Part shown: positions 1,587 to 14,089 of the stretch, piece by piece | Layout of the letters: every line of letters starts with the position of its first letter | How positions within the stretch are numbered: position 1 is the stretch's first letter | Assembly: GCA_021824345.1 (NCBI GenBank) | Contig: JAKAKW010000006.1 | Location: forward strand, 10,257-74,256 | Length of the DNA: 64,000 bases | Reading direction: 5' to 3' | Origin: a bacterium | GTDB lineage: Bacteria > Patescibacteriota > Minisyncoccia > Phycocordibacterales > UBA9973 | Translations under genes and position numbers: made by a program | Notes under the pieces: generated by a model | The model's input: the letters and a program-made list of their open reading frames with translations, nothing else | What the model was told of the DNA's origin: nothing | Databases searched by the model: none

Positions 1587-2909
1587 ATGAAAGAAATTTT
1601 CAAACATATAATAATGTACATCCTGCAAGCCGAATCAAGGCTGGTTCTTTGGAGGTACAAGCCCAAGGTGGTGGCCATTACCGGCAGCGTGGGCAAGACT
1701 TCCACCAAAGACGCCGTATACTCGGCTCTGTCCGGCATGACCCATGTGCGCAAGAGCGAAAAGAGCTACAACAGCGAATTCGGCCTTCCGCTTACCATTC
1801 TCGGCATGCCGACCGGCTGGAGCAATCCGTTCCTATGGATTGCGAACGTTGCCAAAGGATTGTGGCTTTTCCTCTGGCCGCATCGCTACCCAAAATGGCT
1901 GGTGCTTGAGGCGGGAGTAGGCAAGCCGGGAGACATGAAGCGCACCGCGGGCTGGATCAAGACCGACGCGGTGATCGTCACCGCCATAGGGGAAACGCCG
2001 GTGCACATAGAATTTTTTGAATCCCGCAAACACCTCATTGAAGAGAAGAGCGGGCTTATCAAAACCTTGAAGCCCGACGGAGTTTTGATTTTGAACGCGG
2101 ACGACGAAGCGGTGCTTTCCATGAAAGAAAAAACGAAATGCCGGGTGAAAACTTACGGCTTCGGAGACAAAGCGGAACTCAAAGGTTCCGGCGAAAATAT
2201 TTATTACGACGAAAGCGGAGTGCCCCGCGGAACTCTTTTCCGGGTGGATGAAGAGGGCACCAGTCTTCCGGTGGTAATAGAGGGCGTGTTCGGCAGTAAT
2301 CATGTTTATGCCGCCATGGCCACGCTTGCCCTGGCCAGCGCGCTCGGTTTGAATATGATTGAAACGGCGGACGCTCTCAAGAAATATGATCTTCCTCCGG
2401 GCCGGATGCGGCTCCTCCGAGGGATAAACGGATCGCTTATCATAGACGATACCTACAACTCTTCTCCCTTCGCCTGCAAGGCGTCTCTTGAAACTCTCGG
2501 GCAAGTAAAGACGTCCGGCAGGAGAATCGCGGTTCTCGGGGACATGCTGGAGCTCGGCAAGCATACGGAAGACGAGCACAGAAAAATAGGGGAGATCGCC
2601 CGGGAAAATGCAAATGTTCTTCTTGTGGTGGGACAGAGGGCGGAGAAAATAAAGGAAGGGGCGCTTTCGGCCGGCATGCAGGCGGGGGCAATTGAGCAGT
2701 TTCCGAATTCATACTCCGCCGGAGATTTTTTGAAGACTTTTGTCCAGCCCGGAGACCTGGTTTTGATCAAGGGTTCCCAGGGCATGCGCATGGAGAGGGC
2801 AGTGGCCGCCATTTTGGATGAAAGTACAGGCAGTGACGGCAACGGAGGAAAACAGGACAGAAAAAAACTCCTCGTCCGGCAGGACAAGGAGTGGTTGAGG
2901 AAGAAGTAG
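1587..2909 (+). CDS. murF: UDP-N-acetylmuramoyl-tripeptide--D-alanyl-D-alanine ligase MurF
   Basis: Mur ligase P-loop VVAITGSVGKTSTKD. Length and domain order are typical of MurF, and the gene lies directly downstream of the PBP gene as in dcw clusters. Confidence 0.9.
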   Translation: MKEIFKHIIMYILQAESRLVLWRYKPKVVAITGSVGKTSTKDAVYSALSGMTHVRKSEKSYNSEFGLPLTILGMPTGWSNPFLWIANVAKGLWLFLWPHRYPKWLVLEAGVGKPGDMKRTAGWIKTDAVIVTAIGETPVHIEFFESRKHLIEEKSGLIKTLKPDGVLILNADDEAVLSMKEKTKCRVKTYGFGDKAELKGSGENIYYDESGVPRGTLFRVDEEGTSLPVVIEGVFGSNHVYAAMATLALASALGLNMIETADALKKYDLPPGRMRLLRGINGSLIIDDTYNSSPFACKASLETLGQVKTSGRRIAVLGDMLELGKHTEDEHRKIGEIARENANVLLVVGQRAEKIKEGALSAGMQAGAIEQFPNSYSAGDFLKTFVQPGDLVLIKGSQGMRMERAVAAILDESTGSDGNGGKQDRKKLLVRQDKEWLRKK

Positions 2910-2975
2910 AAAAGGAGAGTAGAAGGTAAAATAAAAAGCGCAGAGGTATCAAGGGATACTTGCGCCGGCATTTGC

Positions 2976-3122
2976 CTAAAGTTTATCAAATTTGTGCAAT
3001 ATCTTTCCTAGGAGATATGAATTTCTCCTGTAAAAAAATTTACGCATCGCAAAGGTGAATAAAAGTATCAAGGATAAACCGATCATTAAAAACAATATGA
3101 GCCCAATGTCTCCAGTCTCCAT
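2976..3122 (-). CDS. Candidate small hydrophobic peptide (48 aa, METGDIGLILFLMIGLSLILLFTFAMRKFFYRR...) at the left edge of the AT-rich island
   Basis: Hand-translated minus-strand ORF with a Shine-Dalgarno-like AGGAAAGGA 8 nt upstream of the ATG and one predicted transmembrane helix. It is below the 60 aa cutoff of the ORF track. Confidence 0.25.
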   Translation of the reverse strand: METGDIGLILFLMIGLSLILLFTFAMRKFFYRRNSYLLGKILHKFDKL

Positions 3123-3222
3123 GACTTTTTCCTTTCCTGTTTATATATTTCTTATCATTATACACAAGTCTTGTATTTTGTCAAGTATTTTCGCTGTTTA
3201 AAAGTAAGCATATAATATCCGT

Positions 3223-3759
3223 ATGACTGAAGAATTTAAATTGCCGTACAAGAGGCCGGAAGAAAAGGATTTGGGCGCTCATGAAATAAAGTGGACATAT
3301 AATAAAAAAGCAAAGGCTGTTTTTTATCTGCGCGATCTTTCGGAAAAAAAGCTTGAGGAAATATATAAGGAATATGCCGATAGCCCCGAGATGAACAAAG
3401 CAATTGATGATTTGCTTGCCATCTGGGAAAAGAATGACGTCTATAAAGAAACTTTGCCGTTGGAGATCGTGAATTTTATGGTAGACCCGCTGTATGAAGA
3501 AGATTACATATCAGCATCGGACAAGTCTGCACTGGAAGCGGCGCTTATAAGACTGCGTAATGCCGAGGAAAGCATAAAAGAATTGCAAAACGGGATATTT
3601 AAAGAAAGGAATTGGTTTGAAACAAAGAATAGAGGAGGTATGTATAACAGAGTTATTGTTTACCTGAAGGCGCAAATCGCCGAAGGGGATATGTATTTAG
3701 TGAGAATAGGCGATATTACTAACAAGATGAAAAGAAGGATCAAAGAATTATCGAAGTAA
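3223..3759 (+). CDS. Hypothetical protein (island cargo)
   Basis: Intact 178 aa ORF in the AT-rich island, with no recognisable motifs. Confidence 0.5.
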   Translation: MTEEFKLPYKRPEEKDLGAHEIKWTYNKKAKAVFYLRDLSEKKLEEIYKEYADSPEMNKAIDDLLAIWEKNDVYKETLPLEIVNFMVDPLYEEDYISASDKSALEAALIRLRNAEESIKELQNGIFKERNWFETKNRGGMYNRVIVYLKAQIAEGDMYLVRIGDITNKMKRRIKELSK

Positions 3760-3988
3760 TTCCTTTACAATTTATTTGGTGACCTTAATGTTACCTAACT
3801 TAAAACTCTATGTAAATACATTCAGAGAATTGGACAAGATTATCTCCAATTTTGAAAAACCTTTAGTTCTCAACACCTTGCACGCTGATGCTCTTCAGAG
3901 ATCTATCCCTTAATGGTATTTAAATACTTCGTTGTTGTATAAACACTGCTATATACTTGTTGAGTAAACTAATGTATAATGAATCCAT

Positions 3989-4246
3989 ATGGGGCAAAAA
4001 ATTGATAAGAAAAAATTAATTGAATATTTGCAAACTAAGTGGAAAAGTCCTTGCCCTCTCTGTGGTGTGGGAAATTGGAATGTCTCTGATGGTGTTTTTG
4101 AATTAAGAGAATTTAATGAAGGCAATATGATTATTGGCGGAACTCCTATTGTTCCAGTGATTCCAATAACGTGCGGTAATTGTGGAAATACTGTATTAAT
4201 AAATGCTATTACAGCAAGATTTATCGGAACAGACAGCAATAAATGA
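3989..4246 (+). CDS. Small zinc-ribbon protein (two CxxC pairs: CPLCG ... CGNCG)
   Basis: 85 aa ORF with CxxC-36-CxxC spacing. Its ATGA stop overlaps the start of the next gene. Confidence 0.5.
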   Translation: MGQKIDKKKLIEYLQTKWKSPCPLCGVGNWNVSDGVFELREFNEGNMIIGGTPIVPVIPITCGNCGNTVLINAITARFIGTDSNK

Positions 4247-4836
4247 ATGGCAATGATATAAAATATTCCCAAGATTTTGAACTTCTCATGCCTCAAAAAC
4301 AGAAGTCCTATCCAATACCTGTTAATGAATGGTCTGTCTTAAAAAGAAAAATAAATAATATTTCAGAAAATGCAAATTTCTGGCATACATCCGGATCAAT
4401 ATTGATTGGTGTTGCAATCCCATCGTTTATCACTGCACTAACAGGATTCAATGAGTTAATATACTGGGGTGCCTTTGCCGTAACTGCTATTGCAGGAGGA
4501 CTTTGTTTTTATTTTGGCGTTGAACAACGCAACGTCCAAAATGAAAAAAAGGAAGATGTTATTGAATATATGGGGGTTATTGAGGAGAGATTCCGTATAA
4601 ATAATGCTTTATTTATAAACTCTGCTATGTATGGTATTGATGATAAATATATTGATATTACTTCCTCATTAAATTCCCATGTAGCTGATAGCAAGTTGTC
4701 AGTTAAAATATGCAATGAACTAGCTGGTGATGACCCTTATCCAGGAAAACAGAAGGAGTTAAAAATTGAATATACATTAGAAGGATTAAGACAGTCCACT
4801 ACTCTCAGCGAAGGCAGTATCCTTAATTTAGGATAA
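4243..4836 (+). CDS. Hypothetical membrane protein (2 predicted TM helices), translationally coupled to the upstream zinc-ribbon ORF
   Basis: 4-nt start/stop overlap with the upstream ORF. Two hydrophobic segments (ILIGVAIPSFITAL, GAFAVTAIAGGLCFYF). Confidence 0.5.
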   Translation: MNGNDIKYSQDFELLMPQKQKSYPIPVNEWSVLKRKINNISENANFWHTSGSILIGVAIPSFITALTGFNELIYWGAFAVTAIAGGLCFYFGVEQRNVQNEKKEDVIEYMGVIEERFRINNALFINSAMYGIDDKYIDITSSLNSHVADSKLSVKICNELAGDDPYPGKQKELKIEYTLEGLRQSTTLSEGSILNLG

Positions 4837-4919
4837 TATCTTCTTTTTTCCAAAAGATATATTGTAATATTTAATTTCTTTCTGTAGACATTCTGTATTA
4901 GATGTTGTAGTATTACAGA

Positions 4920-5570
4920 ATGTCAATAAATAGAGAAGAACTTACTTCCACGTTTTTAAAGATGAGAGATTTGTTTGTTGCTGACCCAACTAATGCCGTA
5001 AGAAGTAAATCTTTCATTACTGCATTTCAAGACTATTGTGAATACGAATTGAGGGCTAGAAATCTAGAAGTAAATGGGTTTCATATAGAAAAGGAATGGA
5101 AAATTGAGGTTGAAAGGGGGAGAGTAGAAGCAGATGTAGGCATCTTTGATAAAGATAATCAACCTGTCTTAATAGTTGATGTCAGAAGCCAAATGAGTTC
5201 TCTTGGAAAGAATTTTAATAACTATATAAGAATGAAAGCAGGAGAAGTTGAGAGTGTGCATAAAAAATACCCCAATTGTGTTGATGGTCTAGTATACATT
5301 CATCAAGCCGGAGATTTAAAAACAAATGGTAACATAAATCCTGTTGGCGTATTTAATTATAGTAATGCTGTAAAACAATTAGGTCTATTGTCGGGGCGTA
5401 AAGATGCCAATGGTCCTGCAAGCCTTTTTGAACAAGTTGCATATTGTATTATAGATTTCAACAGTCCTGCGCCTAAACTGTCCGACATCCATGATGTTCT
5501 TGATCTTCAGTTAGAGAATTTTTTTGATAATCTAGCGGACACACTCAAAGAACGCACAAACATAGATTAA
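4920..5570 (+). CDS. Putative restriction endonuclease partner of the adjacent methyltransferase (hypothetical, 216 aa)
   Basis: Convergent with the N6-adenine methyltransferase and sharing overlapping stop codons with it, inside the AT-rich island. A weak acidic D/E-x-K-like patch (EVERGRVEADVGIFDKD) is present, but no family can be named. Confidence 0.35.
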   Translation: MSINREELTSTFLKMRDLFVADPTNAVRSKSFITAFQDYCEYELRARNLEVNGFHIEKEWKIEVERGRVEADVGIFDKDNQPVLIVDVRSQMSSLGKNFNNYIRMKAGEVESVHKKYPNCVDGLVYIHQAGDLKTNGNINPVGVFNYSNAVKQLGLLSGRKDANGPASLFEQVAYCIIDFNSPAPKLSDIHDVLDLQLENFFDNLADTLKERTNID

Positions 5571-7390
5571 TTTACCAATTGGTATTTCTCAGATAAGAAC
5601 TTGTTGATTTCGTTCTTTTCTCCTAATGCAAGAAGCTTTCTTTTTTCTTCTAATGAGAAGCTTGGAATTGAAAAATTCTTTACATAGTTCTTTGCAAATG
5701 ATTTAAAGCCACCAGAGTAGTTTTTACTCGTCTTTTTAATGTAAAACCACATTAAGTCTGAATTTAAAACTTTTTCTAGTATTCGGAAATCCTCCTGTTT
5801 CTTAGGATAGATTGCATAACCACAGTAAAAAAGAGTTTCTTCTTCTTCAACTACAACAAAAGAAGGTCTGTTACCCATCATTGGCAATATAATTTTCTTA
5901 CCAAAACCATTTAAACCCTGTGTTCTTCCGTAAGCATACCAAGCTTCATACTTCTTTAACCCTTTATCTCTTAGGTCAAGTTCATTTTTTATAGCACACA
6001 AATAATCGTAGGTTTTTGGAAACCTTGATTTTATGTGTGATTCAGGAAGTATTTTTGCTCTACCCTTGTTCCCATATTCATAAGGATATATTATTCTTTC
6101 CTTGTTATTTTTAAGAGTTTCTAAATCCTTAACCTTATTTGGTTTAATTATCTTTTTTGTGAAATCTCGTTCTATTTGATACGTTTTTCCATTATATTCT
6201 TTTAAGAGGTACTTGTTATCATTGTTATCATTTACTAGAAACAAATCATTATTTAAAGTGGCTAATCCGGTTATAAATTTGTCTACATATTTAAATAATG
6301 GTGAACCAGAATTTTCAATTCTGAATATATTTTCAGCATCTTTTTTTGATAAAAATCTCCATTCTTTTTTGCCCAAGAGAAAGTGGTTTAAATTATCAAA
6401 TTTAAGTTTGCTTAGTTCTTTTATTTTTTCTTTTTTATCAACTAAACTGAACTTAATTTCATCAGCTCCTTTTTTATTCAGTATTGTTATGCAAGTATAA
6501 GTTATTGCTCCTTCAAAAATTTGCCATCCATTAAAATCAACTATTTTCTCTAAATATTTGTTTTTGAATATAAATTCACGTACAAGCTGTGCATTAGAGG
6601 ATGTTAAATAAGTGTTTGGAGTTATGAAACCTATTATCCCTGCACTGTGTGTAATATCTACTGCCAATTCAAAAAAGGGAATATACAAATCTACGTTTCC
6701 AAAATTTGCAGTTTCCCATTTTTTAATATTCTGCCTAACACTAAATCTTAAATTTTTTGTTCTAACGTATGGCGGGTTTCCAATAATATAATTGAAACCA
6801 GAAAAAGATGGAATGTGTTTCTTCCAATTGAAATCTAAACTATCGCCTTCAAATATATTGAATTCAAAATCATTATCTTCTCCGCTTGTAATAGCTAACA
6901 AGGATAAAATTATTTTTGTCCTTAAAACACTATTAGGTAAAATATCTACTCCATATATATATTTTTTAAATATTTCTTTAAATGAAAGGTTAAATTTTTT
7001 ATTTAAAAATTTTGATGCCTCAATCAAGAAAGCTCCGCTGCCACATGCAGGATCACATACTGTGCCCAGATCCCTAACGGTTTCTTGAACAATATATGAG
7101 ACCACTCCCGTTGGGGTATAATATGAACCGTTAACCTTTCTATCTTCCTCATTAACATTTAATTCATATAAACCTTCCAATAATTCAATATCAGGAACAA
7201 TTAATCTAGAATCAAACCAGAAGGTAATTCCTTGATTAATATTTCGTTCAATAATTGATTTAATTAGTTTGTTTTTTACTGCCTTTATTCCAGCTTTTTT
7301 AAGAACATTACTTATCACAAAAGTCTCTACATCCTGGAAAGAGTAGCAGGACAATTCTTTACTGATTTTTATAATGGGATAGTCCATCAT
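5567..7390 (-). CDS. N6-adenine-specific DNA methyltransferase (gamma class; type II/IIG-like with C-terminal target-recognition region)
   Basis: AdoMet motif I VCDPACGSGAFL lies upstream of catalytic motif IV GNPPYV, which is the gamma-class order. An extension of about 300 aa follows. Confidence 0.8.
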   Translation of the reverse strand: MMDYPIIKISKELSCYSFQDVETFVISNVLKKAGIKAVKNKLIKSIIERNINQGITFWFDSRLIVPDIELLEGLYELNVNEEDRKVNGSYYTPTGVVSYIVQETVRDLGTVCDPACGSGAFLIEASKFLNKKFNLSFKEIFKKYIYGVDILPNSVLRTKIILSLLAITSGEDNDFEFNIFEGDSLDFNWKKHIPSFSGFNYIIGNPPYVRTKNLRFSVRQNIKKWETANFGNVDLYIPFFELAVDITHSAGIIGFITPNTYLTSSNAQLVREFIFKNKYLEKIVDFNGWQIFEGAITYTCITILNKKGADEIKFSLVDKKEKIKELSKLKFDNLNHFLLGKKEWRFLSKKDAENIFRIENSGSPLFKYVDKFITGLATLNNDLFLVNDNNDNKYLLKEYNGKTYQIERDFTKKIIKPNKVKDLETLKNNKERIIYPYEYGNKGRAKILPESHIKSRFPKTYDYLCAIKNELDLRDKGLKKYEAWYAYGRTQGLNGFGKKIILPMMGNRPSFVVVEEEETLFYCGYAIYPKKQEDFRILEKVLNSDLMWFYIKKTSKNYSGGFKSFAKNYVKNFSIPSFSLEEKRKLLALGEKNEINKFLSEKYQLVN

Positions 7391-7707
7391 ACAGTTAATT
7401 ATAACTTACTTTTCCTAAAATAGTTAACATATTTATATCCTTATTTCTCAACATAATCTGTTTGTTTTTTATAAAGGTATTTTTATATTTAATATAGTTT
7501 TGTTAAGAAATAGCGAACATTCACAATATCTATTAAAAATATGTTGGAAAATAAAGATACTAATAAATAAATGGGCAATTATCATTGTTTTTGGTTTTTG
7601 GGTTAAAAACCAACTTTTCATCAACTTTGTTTATAAGTTTAAACAAAGTTTTTTCTGTGGGCATAAATTTATGGTTTTTTGGTATAAACCATCTTTTCAC
7701 AGAATTC

Positions 7708-7827
7708 CTAGAACCATTTTATACCTACCTTAAAGGCAATGCTTATTACTAAAATTAAAATGGTTACTAAAAGAATCACAATCCAGTTAAATGCGTTTTT
7801 GAATGATTTGTAGTCTTGGTCATCCAT
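7708..7827 (-). CDS. Candidate 39-aa single-TM peptide (MDDQDYKSFKNAFNWIVILLVTILILVISIAFKVGIKWF), possible type I toxin-like small protein
   Basis: Hand-translated minus-strand ORF ending in TAG. A highly structured region with interleaved inverted repeats lies immediately 5' of it on that strand. Confidence 0.2.
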   Translation of the reverse strand: MDDQDYKSFKNAFNWIVILLVTILILVISIAFKVGIKWF

Positions 7828-8080
7828 AATCTTGATTGATTTAGCTGACCAGAAACCAAAAAGCTCCTAGCCAGACATACAGGTTTCCCTGTAAGGCACG
7901 GTCAGTGCAAACTCTGACTAGGAGTTTTTTACCACTGACCGTGTCTCACATTCACCATGCCTCTATTGCTAAAGGTTTAGGCTACTTTGTATTAAATTGT
8001 ATGTAGTGATTTTACCTCTTTTGCTTGTAAAAACAAAGTAGGTTATTTGTTTTCTTGATTATAGCGTGTAGAATAAGGAC

Positions 8081-8794
8081 ATGAAAGGGGTTAATGAAAC
8101 AAAGAAATATAACAATCTGATTGAATCAGGACTGGAACTATTATCAAAAGCCCAAAGCTATATAGATACTTTTGACCACAACAGAGTGTATGGTCCTTCT
8201 GATTTAGAAGAGGTGAGTTCGTCTTTTGACATAGTAGAGGAATATCATAATTGGGTGAAAAGCATAATTAAATTTTATAAGTCAGATGATGATAAAGATA
8301 AGATTCTTACCTCTTTCTTTAAGGAAGTAGATGGTGTTCCTACTTTGGACTGGCTAGAGGATAATCACTATATGGAAGGTGATCCAATGCCAGCTAGTAT
8401 TGCTACTTCAATTCTAACTGAGGGGAAGAAAAAGCTAGAATATATCAGAAAAATATATGGCACAGAAAATGTTGGTAATGATAAGAAAATAATTCTGCTG
8501 GTAAATAAGAAAACAAATGAAATTACAGTGAAGGATAAAAATCATTTAAAGCATTCCTTCCGCAGGACATATGGAATAAACAAACGTCTTGGATATTTAA
8601 TCAAGATATACAAAACTCCAAAGATTGGTGGGGCTGTTTTAGCAGGTACTCCTAAGTTACAAAACATTAGTAAAGAATTGAAGAAAATCAATGCTGACTT
8701 AATGGAAGATTTGGATTTGCAGGATAATGTGATTATGAATGATAACAACTCCGGCTACTACATAAACCCAAAATACATTTTTGAATTTACTTAA
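8081..8794 (+). CDS. Hypothetical protein (island cargo)
   Basis: 237 aa AT-rich ORF with no recognisable motif. Confidence 0.45.
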   Translation: MKGVNETKKYNNLIESGLELLSKAQSYIDTFDHNRVYGPSDLEEVSSSFDIVEEYHNWVKSIIKFYKSDDDKDKILTSFFKEVDGVPTLDWLEDNHYMEGDPMPASIATSILTEGKKKLEYIRKIYGTENVGNDKKIILLVNKKTNEITVKDKNHLKHSFRRTYGINKRLGYLIKIYKTPKIGGAVLAGTPKLQNISKELKKINADLMEDLDLQDNVIMNDNNSGYYINPKYIFEFT

Positions 8795-8927
8795 ACAAGA
8801 TTTCTTAGTAAACCTTTTGTTGTTGTTAACCTAAACTAAACAAACCTTACCTACAAAGGTTTGTTTTCATTTTAACCCTACATAATTATAACTATTTTTG
8901 CGTACTTCTTTTTTCTAAAGTTAGGAT

Positions 8928-9128
8928 GTGAAGCCAGAAATAGAAAAAATAATTGAACTCTTGCAACAGATAGAACCAGAAGCAAGCAAGGAAGAATTAG
9001 AGGCAAAAGCCCAGAATATTTGGGAAATTGCCCTTTTCTTGGTTCAGCTGAAGCTTAGAGAGCACTCTAAACAGCCAAAACCAATGGATTTGAGGACTTT
9101 GCCAGAAAATAGGGGGAATTCACCTTAG
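8928..9128 (+). CDS. Small hypothetical protein upstream of the serine recombinase (possible recombination directionality factor)
   Basis: 66 aa ORF. Its position immediately 5' of the integrase gene is the only argument for the function. Confidence 0.2.
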   Translation: MKPEIEKIIELLQQIEPEASKEELEAKAQNIWEIALFLVQLKLREHSKQPKPMDLRTLPENRGNSP

Positions 9129-9238
9129 TTATGGAAAGTCGTGCTTATAACAAATATTACAAGTTTTCGGATTCTAATTATTAGTAATGAGATTTTGAGA
9201 TTATAAAATTAAGAGGTTTACTTAAAGTAATAAGATAT

Positions 9239-10786
9239 ATGAAGAACAAAAAAAATATTAGCAAGCCCAATAATGACATCATCTACATCAGGGTAAGCTC
9301 AAAAGAACAGATTGAGAATTTTTCTTTGGACAATCAAGAAAAGTTCTGCAGAGAGTTTTGCAGGAGAACTGAACATAATGTATTGGCAGTTTTCAGAGAG
9401 GAAGGAGAATCAGCCAAGACAGCAGCCAGAACTCAACTGCAAAAAATGATAAGGTTTTGTGAGGTAAACAAAAAGCAGGTTGATAGGGTTGTAATTTACA
9501 AGGTAGATAGATTCTTCAGGAATGCTGGAGAGCACCTTGCTCTAAGAGCCACATTAAGAAAATTAAATATTTCTCTTGTGTCCGTTACTGAAGCATTTGA
9601 TGATACTCCAAGTGGCAAACTTCAGGAAACAATGTTGGCAGCCTTTGCCCAATTTGACAATGATGTCCGATCTCAAAGGACATATGAAGGCATGAGAGCA
9701 AGAGCCTTGAAAGGATTATGGCCAAATATTGCACCATGGGGCTATGTTAATACCAAAGATAAGTCAGGCAATAAAATTATTGCACCTCATCCTGAAAGAG
9801 CTCCTGTTGTGAAAATGATTTTTCAGGCTTATGCCACTGGAAAGTATAGTTTTAAGGAAATAGCATCTATGGCAAACAAATCTGGGCAGAAATCAAGGCA
9901 TGGATTGAGAATGAGCAAACAATTGGTTGTAAAAATAATTAAGAACCCAATTTACTATGGAAGAATTGCCATTCAGAAGCTTGATGTTGATGTGCAGGGA
10001 AGCCATGAGCCAATAGTTTCTAAGGAGTTATATGATGAAGCAAACTCTGGCAAAAGAAGTATTCATGGTCGGAAAATGCCCAGGAACAGGGATAGTCCCA
10101 CTTTTCCCTTGCGTGGGATTAAGTGCGGTGGTTGCTACAAAAGCATAACTGGTGGAAAGACCAGAAGTAAAACAGGCAGGTATTATCAATACTATGGCTG
10201 TTTTTGTGGTGATTGTTCCAAAAGGACCGCCATTCCCAAAGAGGATTTTGAGAATGAGTTTACAAAGTTCCTCTTTAAAATTACTCCTAGTGATAAACAC
10301 CTTAATGTATTAGGGGAGGCAATTAAGCTTGCCCACAAGAGTGAATTTAACTACATTCTGAATGAGGAAAAAAGATTGAACAACAGAATGGAGGAATTAA
10401 AGGAAAGGAAGGACAAGCTGTTGGATTTGAGAATTGAAGGGAAAATAAATGATGAAGATTTTACTCCTGCCAATGATAAATTGAAATTACAGATCGGAGA
10501 AGTTGAAAAAGAATTGAGTGAGCTGTCTTCTCCTGAACTTGAAATAGATAATGTGGTTGATTCCGGAATAAGTTTTATAAAGAATTTTCCTTATATATGG
10601 AGAAAACTGCATCCAAAGGATTTGAGAGTTTTAAGAAACCTTCTTTTCATGGGAAATCTTGTTTATCATTATCCAACTATCAAAACCCCTGAAGCATCCT
10701 GTATCTACAAGGTAAAACCTGAATTATTGGATGATAAGAATCGTTTTGTGACCTTACCGGGAATCGAACCCGGATTACTTGCTTGA
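9239..10786 (+). CDS. Large serine recombinase (site-specific integrase/resolvase family)
   Basis: N-terminal resolvase catalytic motif IIYIRVSSKEQ. A recombinase domain, a zinc-ribbon (CGGCYKS...YGCFCGDC) and a C-terminal coiled coil follow. The 515 aa length is typical of large serine recombinases, and the 3' end overlaps tRNA-Glu. Confidence 0.85.
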   Translation: MKNKKNISKPNNDIIYIRVSSKEQIENFSLDNQEKFCREFCRRTEHNVLAVFREEGESAKTAARTQLQKMIRFCEVNKKQVDRVVIYKVDRFFRNAGEHLALRATLRKLNISLVSVTEAFDDTPSGKLQETMLAAFAQFDNDVRSQRTYEGMRARALKGLWPNIAPWGYVNTKDKSGNKIIAPHPERAPVVKMIFQAYATGKYSFKEIASMANKSGQKSRHGLRMSKQLVVKIIKNPIYYGRIAIQKLDVDVQGSHEPIVSKELYDEANSGKRSIHGRKMPRNRDSPTFPLRGIKCGGCYKSITGGKTRSKTGRYYQYYGCFCGDCSKRTAIPKEDFENEFTKFLFKITPSDKHLNVLGEAIKLAHKSEFNYILNEEKRLNNRMEELKERKDKLLDLRIEGKINDEDFTPANDKLKLQIGEVEKELSELSSPELEIDNVVDSGISFIKNFPYIWRKLHPKDLRVLRNLLFMGNLVYHYPTIKTPEASCIYKVKPELLDDKNRFVTLPGIEPGLLA

Positions 10787-10820
10787 GAAGCAAGTGTCCT
10801 AACCGTTAGACGATAAGGCC
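10749..10820 (-). tRNA. tRNA-Glu (anticodon CTC)
   Basis: Cloverleaf folded by hand. The acceptor GGCCTTA/TAAGGTC pairs with a G-T wobble at 2-71 (a D-stem G-T wobble as well). D arm GTCT/GGAC, anticodon stem CTTGC/GCAAG with loop TTCTCAA, T arm CCGGG-TTCGATT-CCCGG. No encoded CCA. Confidence 0.8.
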
Positions 10821-11495
10821 GTCGGGAAAATATTAGCATTTATTTGGACAATAAAAAAGCACGTCAGCCGTCGGGACGTGCAATGAAAATTCATACATAC
10901 AGAACACCTGCCTTGCGCCGCTATCACCACCTCCTTTCACTTTGACGGACGGCTTCAGTGAACTTCAGGTAAAGATTATATTAACAGTAATGAAAGTCAA
11001 GAAAATCTGTTGAAAAATAAAACGGCCCTGAACTAGTGGCATCTAGTCAGGGCTTTAATTATTTGCCACTTAAGTGGCGAGGATACAATACACCCTAAAA
11101 TTTTGTTTTTTCAATTATGTCAGGACAAAACGCTAGGGAGGCTTTGATTCCATTGGGATAGAATCATCACCATTTGAGAAAGTTTTCCAGGGATTGTACT
11201 CGCCCTGAAAGGAGGTGACAGGAACGTACGGAATATAAATCATTCTCACCTCTCAATTTTTAAAATTTTAAAAATAACTTTAATTCTGAGCCCGACTTGT
11301 GTCGAACCTTTTGTTACTCTAGGCAACATAACAGCATTTTATGACGTCTAGCGCCTAGGTTAAGAATGCTTTCCGATTTGCTATTTAGGAAATACTTACT
11401 TTTTTTTATTTTAAAATAACAAGTCAGGCTCGGGTATTACCTTACAACTTCCACAAGAAGTGTCAATACAAACAGTGGAAAACTTCTGAAAGGCA

Positions 11496-11548
11496 AAGGC
11501 CGGCCTCCGACCCAGGTCGGAGGCCGGCCGTCTTTGTTTTCTCTTTTA
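11496..11548. terminator. Bidirectional rho-independent terminator (14-bp GC stem GGCCGGCCTCCGAC/GTCGGAGGCCGGCC, T-run on the plus strand)
   Basis: Perfect hairpin at 11498-11529 followed by GTCTTTGTTTTCTCTTTT. It lies just downstream of the rmuC stop on the minus strand. Confidence 0.6.
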
Positions 11549-11555
11549 ATTTCCG

Positions 11556-12623
11556 CTAATCTTCCGCCTTCGGCTTTTCCAGGGCGATGGAAGACAGCTC
11601 TGGCGAAGAGCCGGCGATTTTAAGAATGTCTTTGTCTATCTTCTTGAGTTCCTTGCCCGAAGCGTTGTAGTGGTTTACCACAGTGCTAAGCGAACTGCCC
11701 AGCTTCCCATGGTATTCGTCATAGGCTTTCAAATGCCGGCCGAGGTCTTCCACTTTCTTGATGATTTCCTTGGCGGACTCTTCTATGTGCAAGGCTTTCA
11801 GTCCCTGAAGCACAGTCTGAAGGTACGCCAAGAAAGAGGTGGGGGAAGTGATGATCACTTTGTATTTGCCGGCAGCGCGCTCTATCAAGCTCTCCGCGTT
11901 TTCTTCGGAGGTGTTTCCCCCGATCTTGTTTATTAAAAGATCGTAGTAAATCGCCTCGTGCGGGATGAACATAAAAGCAAAATCCGTGGTGCCTTGCTGG
12001 GGTTGGACGTATTTTGCCGTCTCGGCAATCCTATTTTTCAAATCGTTTACGAAAACGGTTTCTAGTTTCTTCTTTTCAGCCGGATCGCGTTCCTCTACCA
12101 TACGGTTGTAGTTTTCCAGAGAGAACTTTGAATCAATCGGTATGATTTTGTCTTTCACGAATACCGCGGCGTCCACGATTGTGCCGTCGGGAAATCCGTA
12201 TTGCATCTGATAGCTTCCGGCCGGCAGGACGTTTTTGAGCACCGTCTCCAAGTAATATTCTCCCAGGATTCCGCGCTGTTTGGGATTCTTAAGAATATCT
12301 TGCAGATTCTGCAATTGGTCGGCGAAGGAAATCACTTGCTTGTTTGTCTCGTCCAAGCGAGTAAGGCGCTCGGTGATGTCTCGAATGATTTTGTTGGATT
12401 CAGAAGAATGGAATTTTAGACTCTCGTTCATCTGCTTGCTTGTTTCGCCGATCTTGGAATCAACCGTCCGGGACAAGTCGTTTAATTGCTGGAGGATCAG
12501 TTGCAGGCCGGTGTCATTTTCCGTTTTTCCCGGCGTATTTTTATTGCCAAGAAAAAGCATAACAGCCAGTCCTCCCGCCATTACCGCCAATATTCCTATT
12601 ATTATCCACAACGCCGTTTCCAT
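11556..12623 (-). CDS. rmuC: DNA recombination protein RmuC
   Basis: N-terminal TM anchor (ALWIIIGILAVMAGGLAVMLF), a long coiled coil, and a C-terminal RmuC nuclease-like region (FAFMFIPHEAIYYDL). Confidence 0.8.
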   Translation of the reverse strand: METALWIIIGILAVMAGGLAVMLFLGNKNTPGKTENDTGLQLILQQLNDLSRTVDSKIGETSKQMNESLKFHSSESNKIIRDITERLTRLDETNKQVISFADQLQNLQDILKNPKQRGILGEYYLETVLKNVLPAGSYQMQYGFPDGTIVDAAVFVKDKIIPIDSKFSLENYNRMVEERDPAEKKKLETVFVNDLKNRIAETAKYVQPQQGTTDFAFMFIPHEAIYYDLLINKIGGNTSEENAESLIERAAGKYKVIITSPTSFLAYLQTVLQGLKALHIEESAKEIIKKVEDLGRHLKAYDEYHGKLGSSLSTVVNHYNASGKELKKIDKDILKIAGSSPELSSIALEKPKAED

Positions 12624-12675
12624 TTTTGTTTATTATGACACTTTTTTGAAAGTGGGAAGCCTGGCTTTCCACAGG

Positions 12676-13395
12676 CTATTTTTGCAAATAATGCCGCAGG
12701 GTAAAGATCCAGTCTTCCTCTTCCTGCTCGCTTTTTTCTTTTTCACCCAGGAGCCACTCCAGATACGGCCGGTCGGTTTCTGCCACTTCTTCCATTTTCA
12801 TGCCTCGGTACTTTCCGAAATTCATCCGGCGGAAAATGGAAGGCTGGGAGGAAATCTCAACCATTTTTTGCAAGGCTTCCTCTTCGGACAAGTCATATTG
12901 CTCCATTATTTTCTTGCGCAAGCGCTCAAAAAGTTTTTCCAAAACCAGGACATCGCCCATGGCGTCATGAGCCGTGGCGTCAATGTCAATATCCAAAGCA
13001 TAGCGCAGATATTGCAGTTTGTACTGCGAAAGTTTTTCCTCCGGATCCAGATACCGGGCCACCCGCAGAGTGCAGATGAAGTTCTTCGGCGCGATATCCT
13101 CTTTCTTAATGATCATAAGGTCGAACAAAGCGTTGTGCGCCACAGCTACGGCATTCGGGTCCTCGAATCTTTCCTTGATTTCCGCATATTCATCGCTCTC
13201 CTTGAACGGAATCTTGTCTTCCACCATTTTGTTGGTGATATGATGCACGGCGCTCGCTTCCGGAGGAATGCGGACCGGCGGCTTGTACAGTTCCACAAAG
13301 CTTTCCTTGCCGTCCTTGTACGCCAATTGGCACAGGAAATCCGCTTCGGTATTGCCGGTAGTCTCAGTATCAAAGAAGATTATTTTCGCAGGCAT
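12676..13395 (-). CDS. DEDDh 3'-5' exonuclease domain protein (DnaQ/epsilon-like) with C-terminal extension
   Basis: Exo I motif FFDTETTG, Exo II HNALFDL, and Exo III with HDAMGD. Confidence 0.8.
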   Translation of the reverse strand: MPAKIIFFDTETTGNTEADFLCQLAYKDGKESFVELYKPPVRIPPEASAVHHITNKMVEDKIPFKESDEYAEIKERFEDPNAVAVAHNALFDLMIIKKEDIAPKNFICTLRVARYLDPEEKLSQYKLQYLRYALDIDIDATAHDAMGDVLVLEKLFERLRKKIMEQYDLSEEEALQKMVEISSQPSIFRRMNFGKYRGMKMEEVAETDRPYLEWLLGEKEKSEQEEEDWIFTLRHYLQK

Positions 13396-13415
13396 GGTTA
13401 CATTTTATCACAGTT

Positions 13416-13624
13416 TTGATATACTGGTGGCGGAGGCATGAATAGTTCCTGAGAAAAGCCTTGGTAGGCGCGTCGGCGCCGGACGGAGCAAAAGCAAACT
13501 GCTTTGCTTTTGCTCCGGTTCGGCTTTGCCGAAACTGCCGTTGCGAGTCTCAGACGAGCAGGCAGTAGGCGGAAATTTTTCAGCAGAAAAATTTCGTGCT
13601 TTTCGAGGGAAGCTATTCATGCCT
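13416..13624. repeat. Inverted-repeat element (about 30-bp imperfect terminal inverted repeats) filling the divergent promoter region between the exonuclease and YqeY genes
   Basis: TGGCGGAGGCATGAATAG(TTCCTGAGAAAAG) at 13416-13447 pairs with (CTTTTCGAGGGAAG)CTATTCATGCCTCCGCCA at 13593-13624. Internally there is a perfect 14-bp hairpin GGAGCAAAAGCAAA-CTG-TTTGCTTTTGCTCC and a 10-bp hairpin GAAATTTTTC-AGCAG-GAAAAATTTC. Confidence 0.6.
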
Positions 13625-13639
13625 CCGCCATGTGCATTT

Positions 13640-14089
13640 ATGATTCAAGAAAATATAAAAAACGGAATAAAGGAAGCCATGCTTGCGAAGGATACGGTGC
13701 GTTTGGAAACTCTGCGATTCGTTTCGGCCGCTTTTACCAACGAGTTGGTGGCCAGGGGACGCAAGCCCGACGGAGAGCTTTCGGACGAAGAATCCACGGC
13801 TGTCATCGCGCGCCTCGCCAAGCAAAGAAAAGATTCCATAGAGCAGTTCAAAAAAGGCGGGCGGGATGACTTGGTAAAAGAAGAGGAGGCCCAGCTTTCC
13901 GTCCTGGAAGGATTCCTGCCAAAGATGATGGACGGCGCCGAGATTGAGAAAATCGCCAAAGCGAAAAAAGAAGAGCTCGGACTTTCCGACCCGAAGGATA
14001 AGGGAACCTTGATGAAGGAGCTTATGAAAGAATTGAAAGGCAAGGCCGACGGATCGGCGGTAAAGGCGGCGGTGGACGGGCTTTTTTAA
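13640..14089 (+). CDS. GatB/YqeY domain-containing protein
   Basis: A YqeY-like sequence (IKEAMLAKD...LRFVSAAF...) follows M39 of the tracked ORF. The longer ORF-track start at 13526 runs through an inverted-repeat element. Confidence 0.7.
   Translation: MIQENIKNGIKEAMLAKDTVRLETLRFVSAAFTNELVARGRKPDGELSDEESTAVIARLAKQRKDSIEQFKKGGRDDLVKEEEAQLSVLEGFLPKMMDGAEIEKIAKAKKEELGLSDPKDKGTLMKELMKELKGKADGSAVKAAVDGLF

Follow-up and report, generated by a model that had tools for sequence, protein, structure and literature searches.

A 6,969-bp large serine recombinase element at the 3′ end of a tRNA-Glu(CTC) gene in a Nomurabacteria genome, with its attachment site probably inside the recombinase gene

The stretch of DNA analysed here (64,000 nucleotides of contig JAKAKW010000006.1, assembly GCA_021824345.1), referred to as the window, carries between murF and a tRNA-Glu(CTC) gene an integrative element of 6,969 bp at window positions 3782-10750, whose recombinase is of the large serine recombinase (LSR) type. 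The flanks belong to a genome of Candidatus Nomurabacteria, within the Candidate Phyla Radiation (CPR)/Patescibacteria. The locus is composed of three layers: host DNA up to 3192, an AT-rich segment with the open reading frame (ORF) p178 at 3193-3778, and the LSR element at 3782-10750. The features of the second layer, of the element apart from its cargo, and of the target gene are as follows.

3193-3778, plus strand: AT-rich layer, GC 0.37, with p178 (ORF 3223-3759); absent from the relative L011; B arm of the inferred attB
3779-3787: attL core GTGACCTTA, repeat of the tRNA-Glu 3′ end; inferred crossover GA 3781-3782
3779-3913, plus strand: detached LSR 3′ end, 44 codons (VTLMLPNLKLYVNTFRELDKIISNFEKPLVLNTLHADALQRSIP) and a stop, in the frame of LSR codon 504; no conserved start
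7860-7983, minus strand: LOOT RNA (Rfam RF03000; Rfam match 7866-7983), 53.8 bits against a gathering threshold of 46.4; model positions 1-121
8081-8794, plus strand: p237, backbone protein; C-terminal half kept in L016, L024, and L025 at the same position
8928-9128, plus strand: p66, small ORF directly upstream of the LSR; homologues at the same position in 15 related loci
9239-10786, plus strand: LSR, integrated isoform, 515 aa; Pfam Resolvase 4e-33, Recombinase 1e-16
10748-10756: attR core GTGACCTTA; inferred crossover GA 10750-10751
10748-10820, minus strand: tRNA-Glu(CTC), integration target and B′ arm, intact; ARAGORN, Rfam tRNA 65.9 bits

The recombinase ORF contains the Resolvase (PF00239) and Recombinase (PF07508) domains; the catalytic residues R18 and S20 do not vary in sets of 40 and 102 homologues, and among the zinc-ribbon cysteines C296, C299, and C326 are invariant and C321 is nearly so. 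The AlphaFold model of the homologue P0139, with a predicted local distance difference test score (pLDDT) above 90 over residues 1-489 and long helices at 348-425, matched the full-length SPbeta, Bxb1, phiC31, and LI integrase structures with E values down to 9e-20, at a sequence identity to solved LSRs of 14-18%. Domains, invariant residues, predicted fold, and structure matches all indicate that the window recombinase is an LSR. An earlier note on this DNA had described the 3′ end of the gene as overlapping a tRNA-Glu gene on the opposite strand, which is borne out: the overlap is 39 nt, and the TGA stop is read in antisense from the anticodon loop. The element encodes residues 1-503, and residues 504-515 (VTLPGIEPGLLA) come from reading the acceptor and T arm of tRNA-Glu in antisense.

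The same note had seen no direct repeat of the tRNA 3′ end at the left junction. This proved incorrect, as GTGACCTTA, the 3′ acceptor end of tRNA-Glu, stands at 3779-3787 as well as at 10748-10756, the left copy lying about 830 bp inside the boundary then proposed. A generic repeat search over 2700-11600 returned chance AT-rich matches only and missed this 9-bp core. The locus was compared with 80 metagenome loci encoding relatives of the window LSR (32-71% identity). The result showed that, beyond the recombinase, window 3770-3970, 7843-8006, and 8480-9140 are conserved across loci, and that the first of these blocks opens in every locus with GTGACC(C/T)TAA, the antisense of the last tRNA bases. 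Eleven distinct related elements of 6.1-9.0 kb (12 listed loci, two being one sequence) were organized alike at attL and attR, and their common core of 5-11 bp always includes TGACC. Because of the 9-bp repeat and the same arrangement in the related elements, the element was delimited as 3782-10750. In four loci the contig ends no more than 120 bp upstream of the attL site, as is expected of a strain-variable junction. When the related loci were searched for a motif marking a left end around 3190, promoter-like chance matches alone came up, and the match in L023 lay inside an ORF.

GTG at 10748 is LSR codon 504, and GTG at 3779 opens the 44-codon frame of the detached 3′ end. This frame was open in 13/13 loci (44-50 codons), with exactly 44 codons in nine of them, and was located 5-9 kb upstream of each LSR; its dN/dS was 0.25-0.6 for closer pairs. 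In P0139 (543 aa), which is encoded on contig L174, the LSR runs in frame through ...KNRW-VTLTIPDSKPFVEFF...IP to the stop. L174 is an 8.7-kb contig of uniformly low GC without a tRNA, and its sequence suggests that it holds the attP configuration. As LSR and tail are fused in contigs of this unintegrated type, attP would lie inside the LSR gene, and integration would swap its C-terminal tail. In the unintegrated form, codons 1-503 would continue through attP into 44 more codons, giving a predicted protein of 547 aa. Integration would shift the 44 codons to attL (3779-3913) and leave the LSR with its 12-residue antisense-tRNA tail, so that the integrated LSR gene appears to be a longer gene cut short and given a tRNA-derived end. 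The earlier description of the locus as a classic integrase-next-to-tRNA arrangement thus stands as regards adjacency but falls short as a full account, with an attachment site that would lie inside the LSR ORF. In distant elements at tRNA-Arg and tRNA-Glu (LSR about 35-37% identical), a homologous tail was found at a 9-11-nt repeat 4.1-5.7 kb upstream; the split-gene design therefore seems to be old and general in the LSR family.

Integration would be carried out by the element's own LSR at the extreme 3′ end of tRNA-Glu(CTC), with crossover within TGACC. The likeliest crossover point is the GA of GTGACC, equivalent to positions 71-72 of the tRNA, whose acceptor and T arm would form the B′ half-site. 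The predicted attB begins CCTTTACAATTTATTTGGTGACCTTACCGGG, and the inferred junctions are CCTTTACAATTTATTTGGTGACCTTACCGGGAATCGAACCC for attB and GATGATAAGAATCGTTTTGTGACCTTAATGTTACCTAACTTAAAAC for attP. The reconstructed attP is a pseudo-palindrome, GAATCGTT-N10-AACGAT(A/T)C, and it is perfect in L174, where the junction GAATCGTT-GGGTGACCCT-AACGATTC forms a perfect 8-bp inverted repeat centred between GTG and ACC. The same position gave the best dyad centre across 12 reconstructed attP sites (score 105, next best 102). The motif GA(A/T)TC(G/A)AA occurs at +11 to +19 in B′ (the tRNA arm) and at +16 to +24 in P′ (the element arm), and identity between B′ and P′ was maximal at a shift of exactly 5 bp (59%, compared to 7-43% at other shifts). 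Zinc-ribbon motif positions and a 5-bp shift between attB and attP have been described for the LI integrase (PMC3783163), and the motif positions and shift found here would reproduce that geometry. The repeat, the layout of the related elements, the attP pseudo-palindrome, and the B′/P′ motif shift together define the predicted att sites. The inferred tRNA end is GGTCA-CCA, with CCA encoded, before integration, and GGTCA-CAA in the integrated copy; integration would remove the encoded CCA, and the tRNA would therefore depend on the CCA-adding enzyme.

The closest relative, L011 (MurF 78% identical), has murF, a terminator hairpin, a 46-aa minus-strand ORF, 75 bp, and a minus-strand tRNA-Glu(TTC), with no island between the small ORF and tRNA-Glu. 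Pairwise alignment of the window with L011 showed homology over the murF end, the hairpin, the small ORF, and the promoter, ending at about 3192, exactly where the L011 tRNA starts; the insertion therefore lies between 2910-3192 and the tRNA. Since the alignment spans 2910-3192 with its ORF and promoter, this segment is host DNA. In L009 (MurF 66% identical), the order after murF is a small membrane ORF on the minus strand, tRNA-Glu(CTC), one ORF, and then rmuC-exonuclease-yqeY, and the island is absent. With a GC of 0.326 compared to 0.47-0.53 in the host, and absent from both nearest relatives, the island is foreign. These relatives, with murF, small ORF, and tRNA-Glu but no island, agree with the proposal in the earlier note of an integrative LSR island with restriction-modification (R-M) cargo, and L011 provides the gene order of an empty site that was to be sought in related genomes, while the exact empty site of the species was not found. 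Among Nomurabacteria, the tRNA-Glu after murF varies in anticodon (TTC/CTC), orientation, and neighbours (compared positions: L011 11569-11641; L009 11795-11870; L012 18692-18766; window 10748-10820). The tRNA-Glu genes appear to be rearrangement breakpoints, possibly due to elements targeting both isoacceptors.

The AT-rich p178 segment directly to the left of the element is distinct from it. p178 had no Pfam, PADLOC, or PHROG match and no homologue in any fetched locus. The segment could be what is left of an earlier insertion at the tRNA-Glu that the element targets.

The recombinase belongs to a large group. The ORF ends in a minus-strand tRNA in 58 of the 80 loci (Glu 46, Arg 6, Ala 3, His 1, Ile 1, and Trp 1), and nearly all of the best 120 homologues end in peptides such as VTLPGIEPGLPA, VTLRGIEPRFQP, or VTLQRIEL, which are antisense readings of a tRNA acceptor plus T arm. 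When 1.84 billion cluster representatives were searched with a profile, at least 150 matched, and all 150 listed had E values below 1e-134; among the matches listed, at least 105 had tRNA-antisense tails (e.g., GIEP), and about 20 had long homologous tails with a conserved amphipathic WN-type motif, which is the attP form. Apparently this is a large, seemingly undescribed family of LSR elements aimed at the 3′ end of tRNA-Glu. In many related elements, an extra Resolvase-only gene (127-139 aa), which the window element lacks, lies between the p66 homologue and the full LSR (L174 3978-4361; also L015, L021, L027, L028, L030, L031, L032, and L034). L027 also has a second LSR (12242-13849, minus strand, 535 aa, only 25% identical to that of the window). 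Its gene adjoins tRNA-Ser(cga) at 12166-12254, reaching 13 nt into the tRNA 3′ end, and flanks the same tRNA-Glu/tRNA-Ser pair from the opposite side. LSRs that target tRNA 3′ ends may be widespread among CPR genomes.

The LOOT RNA motif (Weinberg et al., 2017; PMC5737381) is listed in Rfam as an sRNA without an assigned function. The Rfam model detected it in 12 of 13 related loci, the thirteenth being without upstream DNA. A covariance model of our own, built from the Rfam-model matches, found LOOT in 26 fetched loci (some of them duplicates, and the match in L062 weak) plus the window, and, L062 aside, every LOOT locus has an LSR with 42% identity or more to that of the window. Upstream of the LSR, LOOT invariably had minus-strand orientation, at a distance of 0.65-2.4 kb from the LSR start. 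It lies at the border between a conserved block (p237-like gene, p66, sometimes the Resolvase-only gene, and LSR) and the variable cargo, pointing at the cargo. LOOT was missing from three loci of the closer clade with enough upstream DNA and from the more distant clade; tail-bearing relatives without LOOT are contigs from soil, peat, and freshwater metagenomes. A role as the 5′ leader of one conserved gene was rejected, as the downstream ORFs are not one family. Compared to the Rfam entry, LOOT is here a fixed part of the LSR element backbone in constant position and orientation, suggesting that it is a functional backbone RNA. No publication giving a function or genomic context of LOOT was found in the open-access literature. 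About 33-40 nt past the LOOT 3′ end, according to whether 7866 or 7860 is used for it, begins an ORF of 39 aa (MDDQDYKSFKNAFNWIVILLVTILILVISIAFKVGIKWF; 7708-7827, minus strand) for which a single membrane helix is predicted. Second LOOT copies were seen in L032 (1433-1546, plus strand), L033 (735-859, minus strand), and L177 (12618-12740, plus strand), some with second, distant recombinase genes, which suggests tandem or inverted arrays of elements at one tRNA.

Neither of the other two backbone ORFs had a Pfam, PADLOC, or PHROG match. p237, which is followed by a terminator-like hairpin at 8838-8866, also had no homologue in an index of 5.8 billion proteins. By its position, p66 is a candidate directionality factor or regulator.

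The cargo of the window element lies between the detached tail and LOOT.

3989-4836, plus strand: p85 (3989-4246), with CxxC...CxxC, and p197 (4243-4836), which overlaps p85 and has predicted membrane helices
4920-5570, plus strand: type II restriction endonuclease candidate p216, 216 aa; PADLOC REase_II 5.8e-11
5567-7390, minus strand: gamma-class N6-adenine DNA methyltransferase, 607 aa; Pfam Eco57I 2.5e-28, N6_Mtase 4e-26, TaqI_C

The methyltransferase matched PADLOC MTase_II over its full length (8e-137), has DPACGSG before NPPY, and carries its target-recognition domain at the C-terminus. It is convergent with p216, with a 4-bp overlap, and the earlier assignment of a gamma-class methyltransferase convergent with a candidate endonuclease is supported by the Eco57I, N6_Mtase, and TaqI_C domains and both PADLOC matches. 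The two genes, separate and side by side, would constitute a type II R-M system. p85 and p197 gave marginal matches only (p85 to PHROG 4293 at 5e-6, p197 to DnaJ-like_C11_C exactly at the Pfam cut-off), p197 had no PADLOC or PHROG match, and neither was conserved in related elements. The related elements at tRNA-Glu combine a common backbone with differing cargo. A census of 84 non-recombinase ORFs from 12 elements included five DNA methyltransferases, two DRT UG13b reverse transcriptases, and eight small Resolvase-only proteins, as well as AAA_15 and AAA_21 ATPases, Hypoth_Ymh, the PycTM effector domain, PIN, HNH and EndoVII nucleases, and NUDIX; judging by these domains, the cargo of the relatives appears to be of defence type (R-M, DRT, and Abi-like). 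No virion, packaging, conjugation, or replication genes were found in the census, and no virion, packaging, or replication genes in the window (Pfam, PHROGs, PADLOC). The elements look like small defence-gene shuttles.

The host sequences around the element include the following features.

1587-2909, plus strand: murF, host left flank, outside the element; Pfam Mur_ligase_M and Mur_ligase_C, synteny; GC 0.535
2976-3122, minus strand: small membrane ORF, 48 aa, host; counterpart after murF in L009, L010, and L011
3157-3184, minus strand: promoter TTGACA-16-TATAAT of the 48-aa ORF; 12/12 consensus score

murF is the last gene of an mraZ-rsmH-ftsL-PBP-murF block, and the right flank has the gene order rmuC, exonuclease, yqeY, obg, gatB. 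The terminator, 48-aa membrane ORF, and promoter that make up 2910-3192 all align with L011. Windowed GC confirmed the sharp drop reported before: it is 0.48-0.55 until about 2750 and 0.25-0.40 from about 3000 to about 10750. By segment, GC is 0.535 in murF, 0.336 in 2910-3192, 0.374 in 3193-3778, 0.326 in 3779-10747, 0.397 in 10821-11555, and 0.469 in the remaining window. Regarding the bounds that the earlier note had given to the AT-rich island, low GC (0.37-0.43) runs on to the right beyond tRNA-Glu to about 11500, and the left bound at about 2950 by murF does not hold, as 2910-3192 is host DNA. In the 735 bp between the 5′ side of tRNA-Glu and rmuC (10821-11555; GC 0.40), ORFs of at least 50 aa are absent. 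This segment has an AT palindrome of 20 nt (11256-11275) and a strong bidirectional terminator (11498-11529); it gave zero Rfam matches and no similarity to any fetched locus. In place of this segment relatives have a gene (222 aa in L009, GreA-like in L012).

Taken together, these results make it very probable that the locus holds a 6,969-bp integrative element inserted by its LSR at the 3′ end of tRNA-Glu(CTC), with attP inside the LSR gene and a conserved backbone with swappable cargo. The backbone would comprise the detached tail, LOOT RNA, p237, p66, and the LSR, and the cargo here the R-M pair and two ORFs. The two LSR isoforms may behave differently, the tail being needed for or regulating integration, or marking the excised state, and the element may still be able to excise. 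Several observations weigh against this interpretation. The dyad-symmetry score, at 105 compared to 102, hardly separates the best centre from others. The tRNA-Glu of L011 is TTC rather than CTC and its right flank differs from that of the window, so L011 is an attB analogue and not a true ancestor. Look-ups of the exact MurF, RmuC, LSR, and p178 proteins yielded no island-free contig of the species; the island was present in 16/16 contigs with the exact MurF or p178 protein, and no empty site, circular form, or attP/attB junction was found for the window's species. The circularity of L174 is unsupported, as it has no terminal overlap and its joined ends do not rebuild the LOOT that is cut at the contig start, and P0168 on L177 is an LSR-tail fusion within a chromosomal array, with the variant core GTGGAC. 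As L174 is not demonstrably circular and L177 is in an array, the fused forms may be tandem junctions and not free elements. In addition, the tail has no confident predicted fold (pLDDT about 40, AlphaFold), and third codon positions show only a modest surplus of substitutions (650:537:739 for the three positions). Part of the tail conservation could be at the DNA level.

A further proposal, which we put forward tentatively and regard as less than an even prospect, is that the LSR senses its own state, the tailed (excised) and tRNA-tailed (integrated) isoforms differing in activity or directionality, that LOOT is its dedicated partner, and that the elements form an unrecognised class of defence shuttles at tRNA-Glu across CPR. 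The full-length LSR with its amphipathic tail would be made only while the element is excised, and LOOT would take part in regulation, recombination, or upkeep of the excised form.

It is possible, though in our judgement doubtful, that the element is instead a fixed immobile remnant of an old integration, with an inactive or domesticated LSR. The 16 contigs of the species come from several samples and all have the island at the same place, the window LOOT scores lowest of all (53.8 bits, compared to 72-88 in the relatives), and the P′ arm fits the inverted repeat of the family at only 5/8 positions. However, the LSR ORF is full length and keeps every family-invariant residue, attL and attR agree at all 9 bp of the core, the tail frame remains open, the R-M pair is intact, and the GC of the element has not shifted towards the host value.

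Somewhat more doubtful still is the explanation that the 44-codon tail is not a functional protein, its conservation reflecting constraint on the DNA as P′ arm or as promoter/operator of the first cargo genes, and the read-through ORFs being accidents of gene calling. The low AlphaFold confidence for the tail would fit this, as would a dN/dS that nears 1 for distant pairs and tblastx matches spread over several frames and both strands, a pattern that conservation of the DNA itself would produce between close relatives. It accounts poorly for exactly 44 open codons in nine of 13 sequences in DNA of about 33% GC, for a conserved stretch of about 130 bp, which is far longer than a 25-bp half-site, for synonymous codon-family switches (e.g., TTG to CTT), and for an amphipathic motif that is still recognizable at about 35% LSR identity and at other tRNAs, where the DNA can no longer be aligned.

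Two other explanations are very improbable. A single 7.8-kb island from the murF end (about 2950) to the tRNA, with a 2-bp crossover, no repeat, and an LSR simply abutting the tRNA, would fit the GC drop from about 2950 and the failure of the generic search to find a long repeat, but 2910-3192 aligns with an island-free relative and holds a conserved host ORF and promoter, the 9-bp copy of the tRNA end at 3779 is followed by a 44-codon tail kept in at least 13 related elements, and p178 has no counterpart in them. A prophage or phage satellite would likewise be tRNA-adjacent, small, and low in GC, but no capsid, terminase, replication, or packaging gene is present in the window or in 12 related elements, the best match among IMG/VR viral contigs reaches an identity of only 31% to the LSR, and a scan of these contigs for the attP pattern found nothing.

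If the locus is read as an LSR element with attP inside its recombinase gene, it can be set beside several known systems. It shares the domain order of the LI/A118, Bxb1, phiC31, SPbeta SprA, and TP901-1 integrases, with catalytic domain, recombinase domain, and then zinc ribbon with coiled-coil insert, and the predicted fold matches as well. Known phage LSRs mostly integrate at protein-coding or intergenic sites and have att sites outside the integrase ORF; the target here, in contrast, is a tRNA 3′ end, and attP would lie inside the ORF, 44 codons before its end. If the predicted sites are right, a pseudo-palindromic attP and a motif located 5 bp nearer the centre in attB (PMC3783163) would be common to the phage LSRs and the window element. 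The element also resembles the tRNA islands found by Islander in its insertion at the 3′ part of the tRNA, the restored tRNA end, the displaced copy at the far boundary, and the integrase adjoining the tRNA. In the Islander paper, integration into tRNA/tmRNA genes is catalysed by tyrosine integrases (PMC4383910), whereas the window's only recombinase is of the serine type and the repeat is limited to the last acceptor-stem bases (5-11 bp).

Closer parallels are found in split genes. In the archaeal SSV1, a tyrosine integrase gene is partitioned by attP at a tRNA target, and much of the enzyme is lost through the split. attP inside the integrase gene, a tRNA target, and gene parts at opposite ends of the element are shared with SSV1, but here a 44-residue C-terminal extension would be lost and the folded domains stay together in the AlphaFold model. 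In the integration-dependent immunity of the mycobacteriophages BPs, Brujita, and Charlie, on which Broussard and colleagues reportedly worked in 2013, attP is said to lie in the repressor gene, with a tyrosine integrase, and the part removed is said to be a degradation tag. Here too attP would lie in a gene, the C-termini of the integrated and free forms would differ, and the state of the element would have a built-in read-out; the split gene, in contrast, is the recombinase itself. Nothing on LSRs targeting tRNA-Glu, or on attP inside a serine integrase gene, was found in the open-access literature, although mention elsewhere is possible, for instance in catalogues of LSR att sites.

tRNA genes are the textbook targets of tyrosine integrases; the present data point to a very large family of serine integrases dedicated to tRNA gene 3′ ends, mostly of tRNA-Glu. 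Because this target is conserved in most bacteria, the family would provide a natural set of LSRs with predictable attB for genome engineering. attP within the LSR ORF would yield two state-specific isoforms and with them a testable mechanism of directionality or copy control, which, as far as we have found, is new for serine integrases. The orphan LOOT RNA gains a genomic home, which makes its function approachable by experiment. Finally, the elements would represent a mobile family that moves R-M and other defence genes among CPR (Patescibacteria) genomes, the mobilome of which is poorly known.

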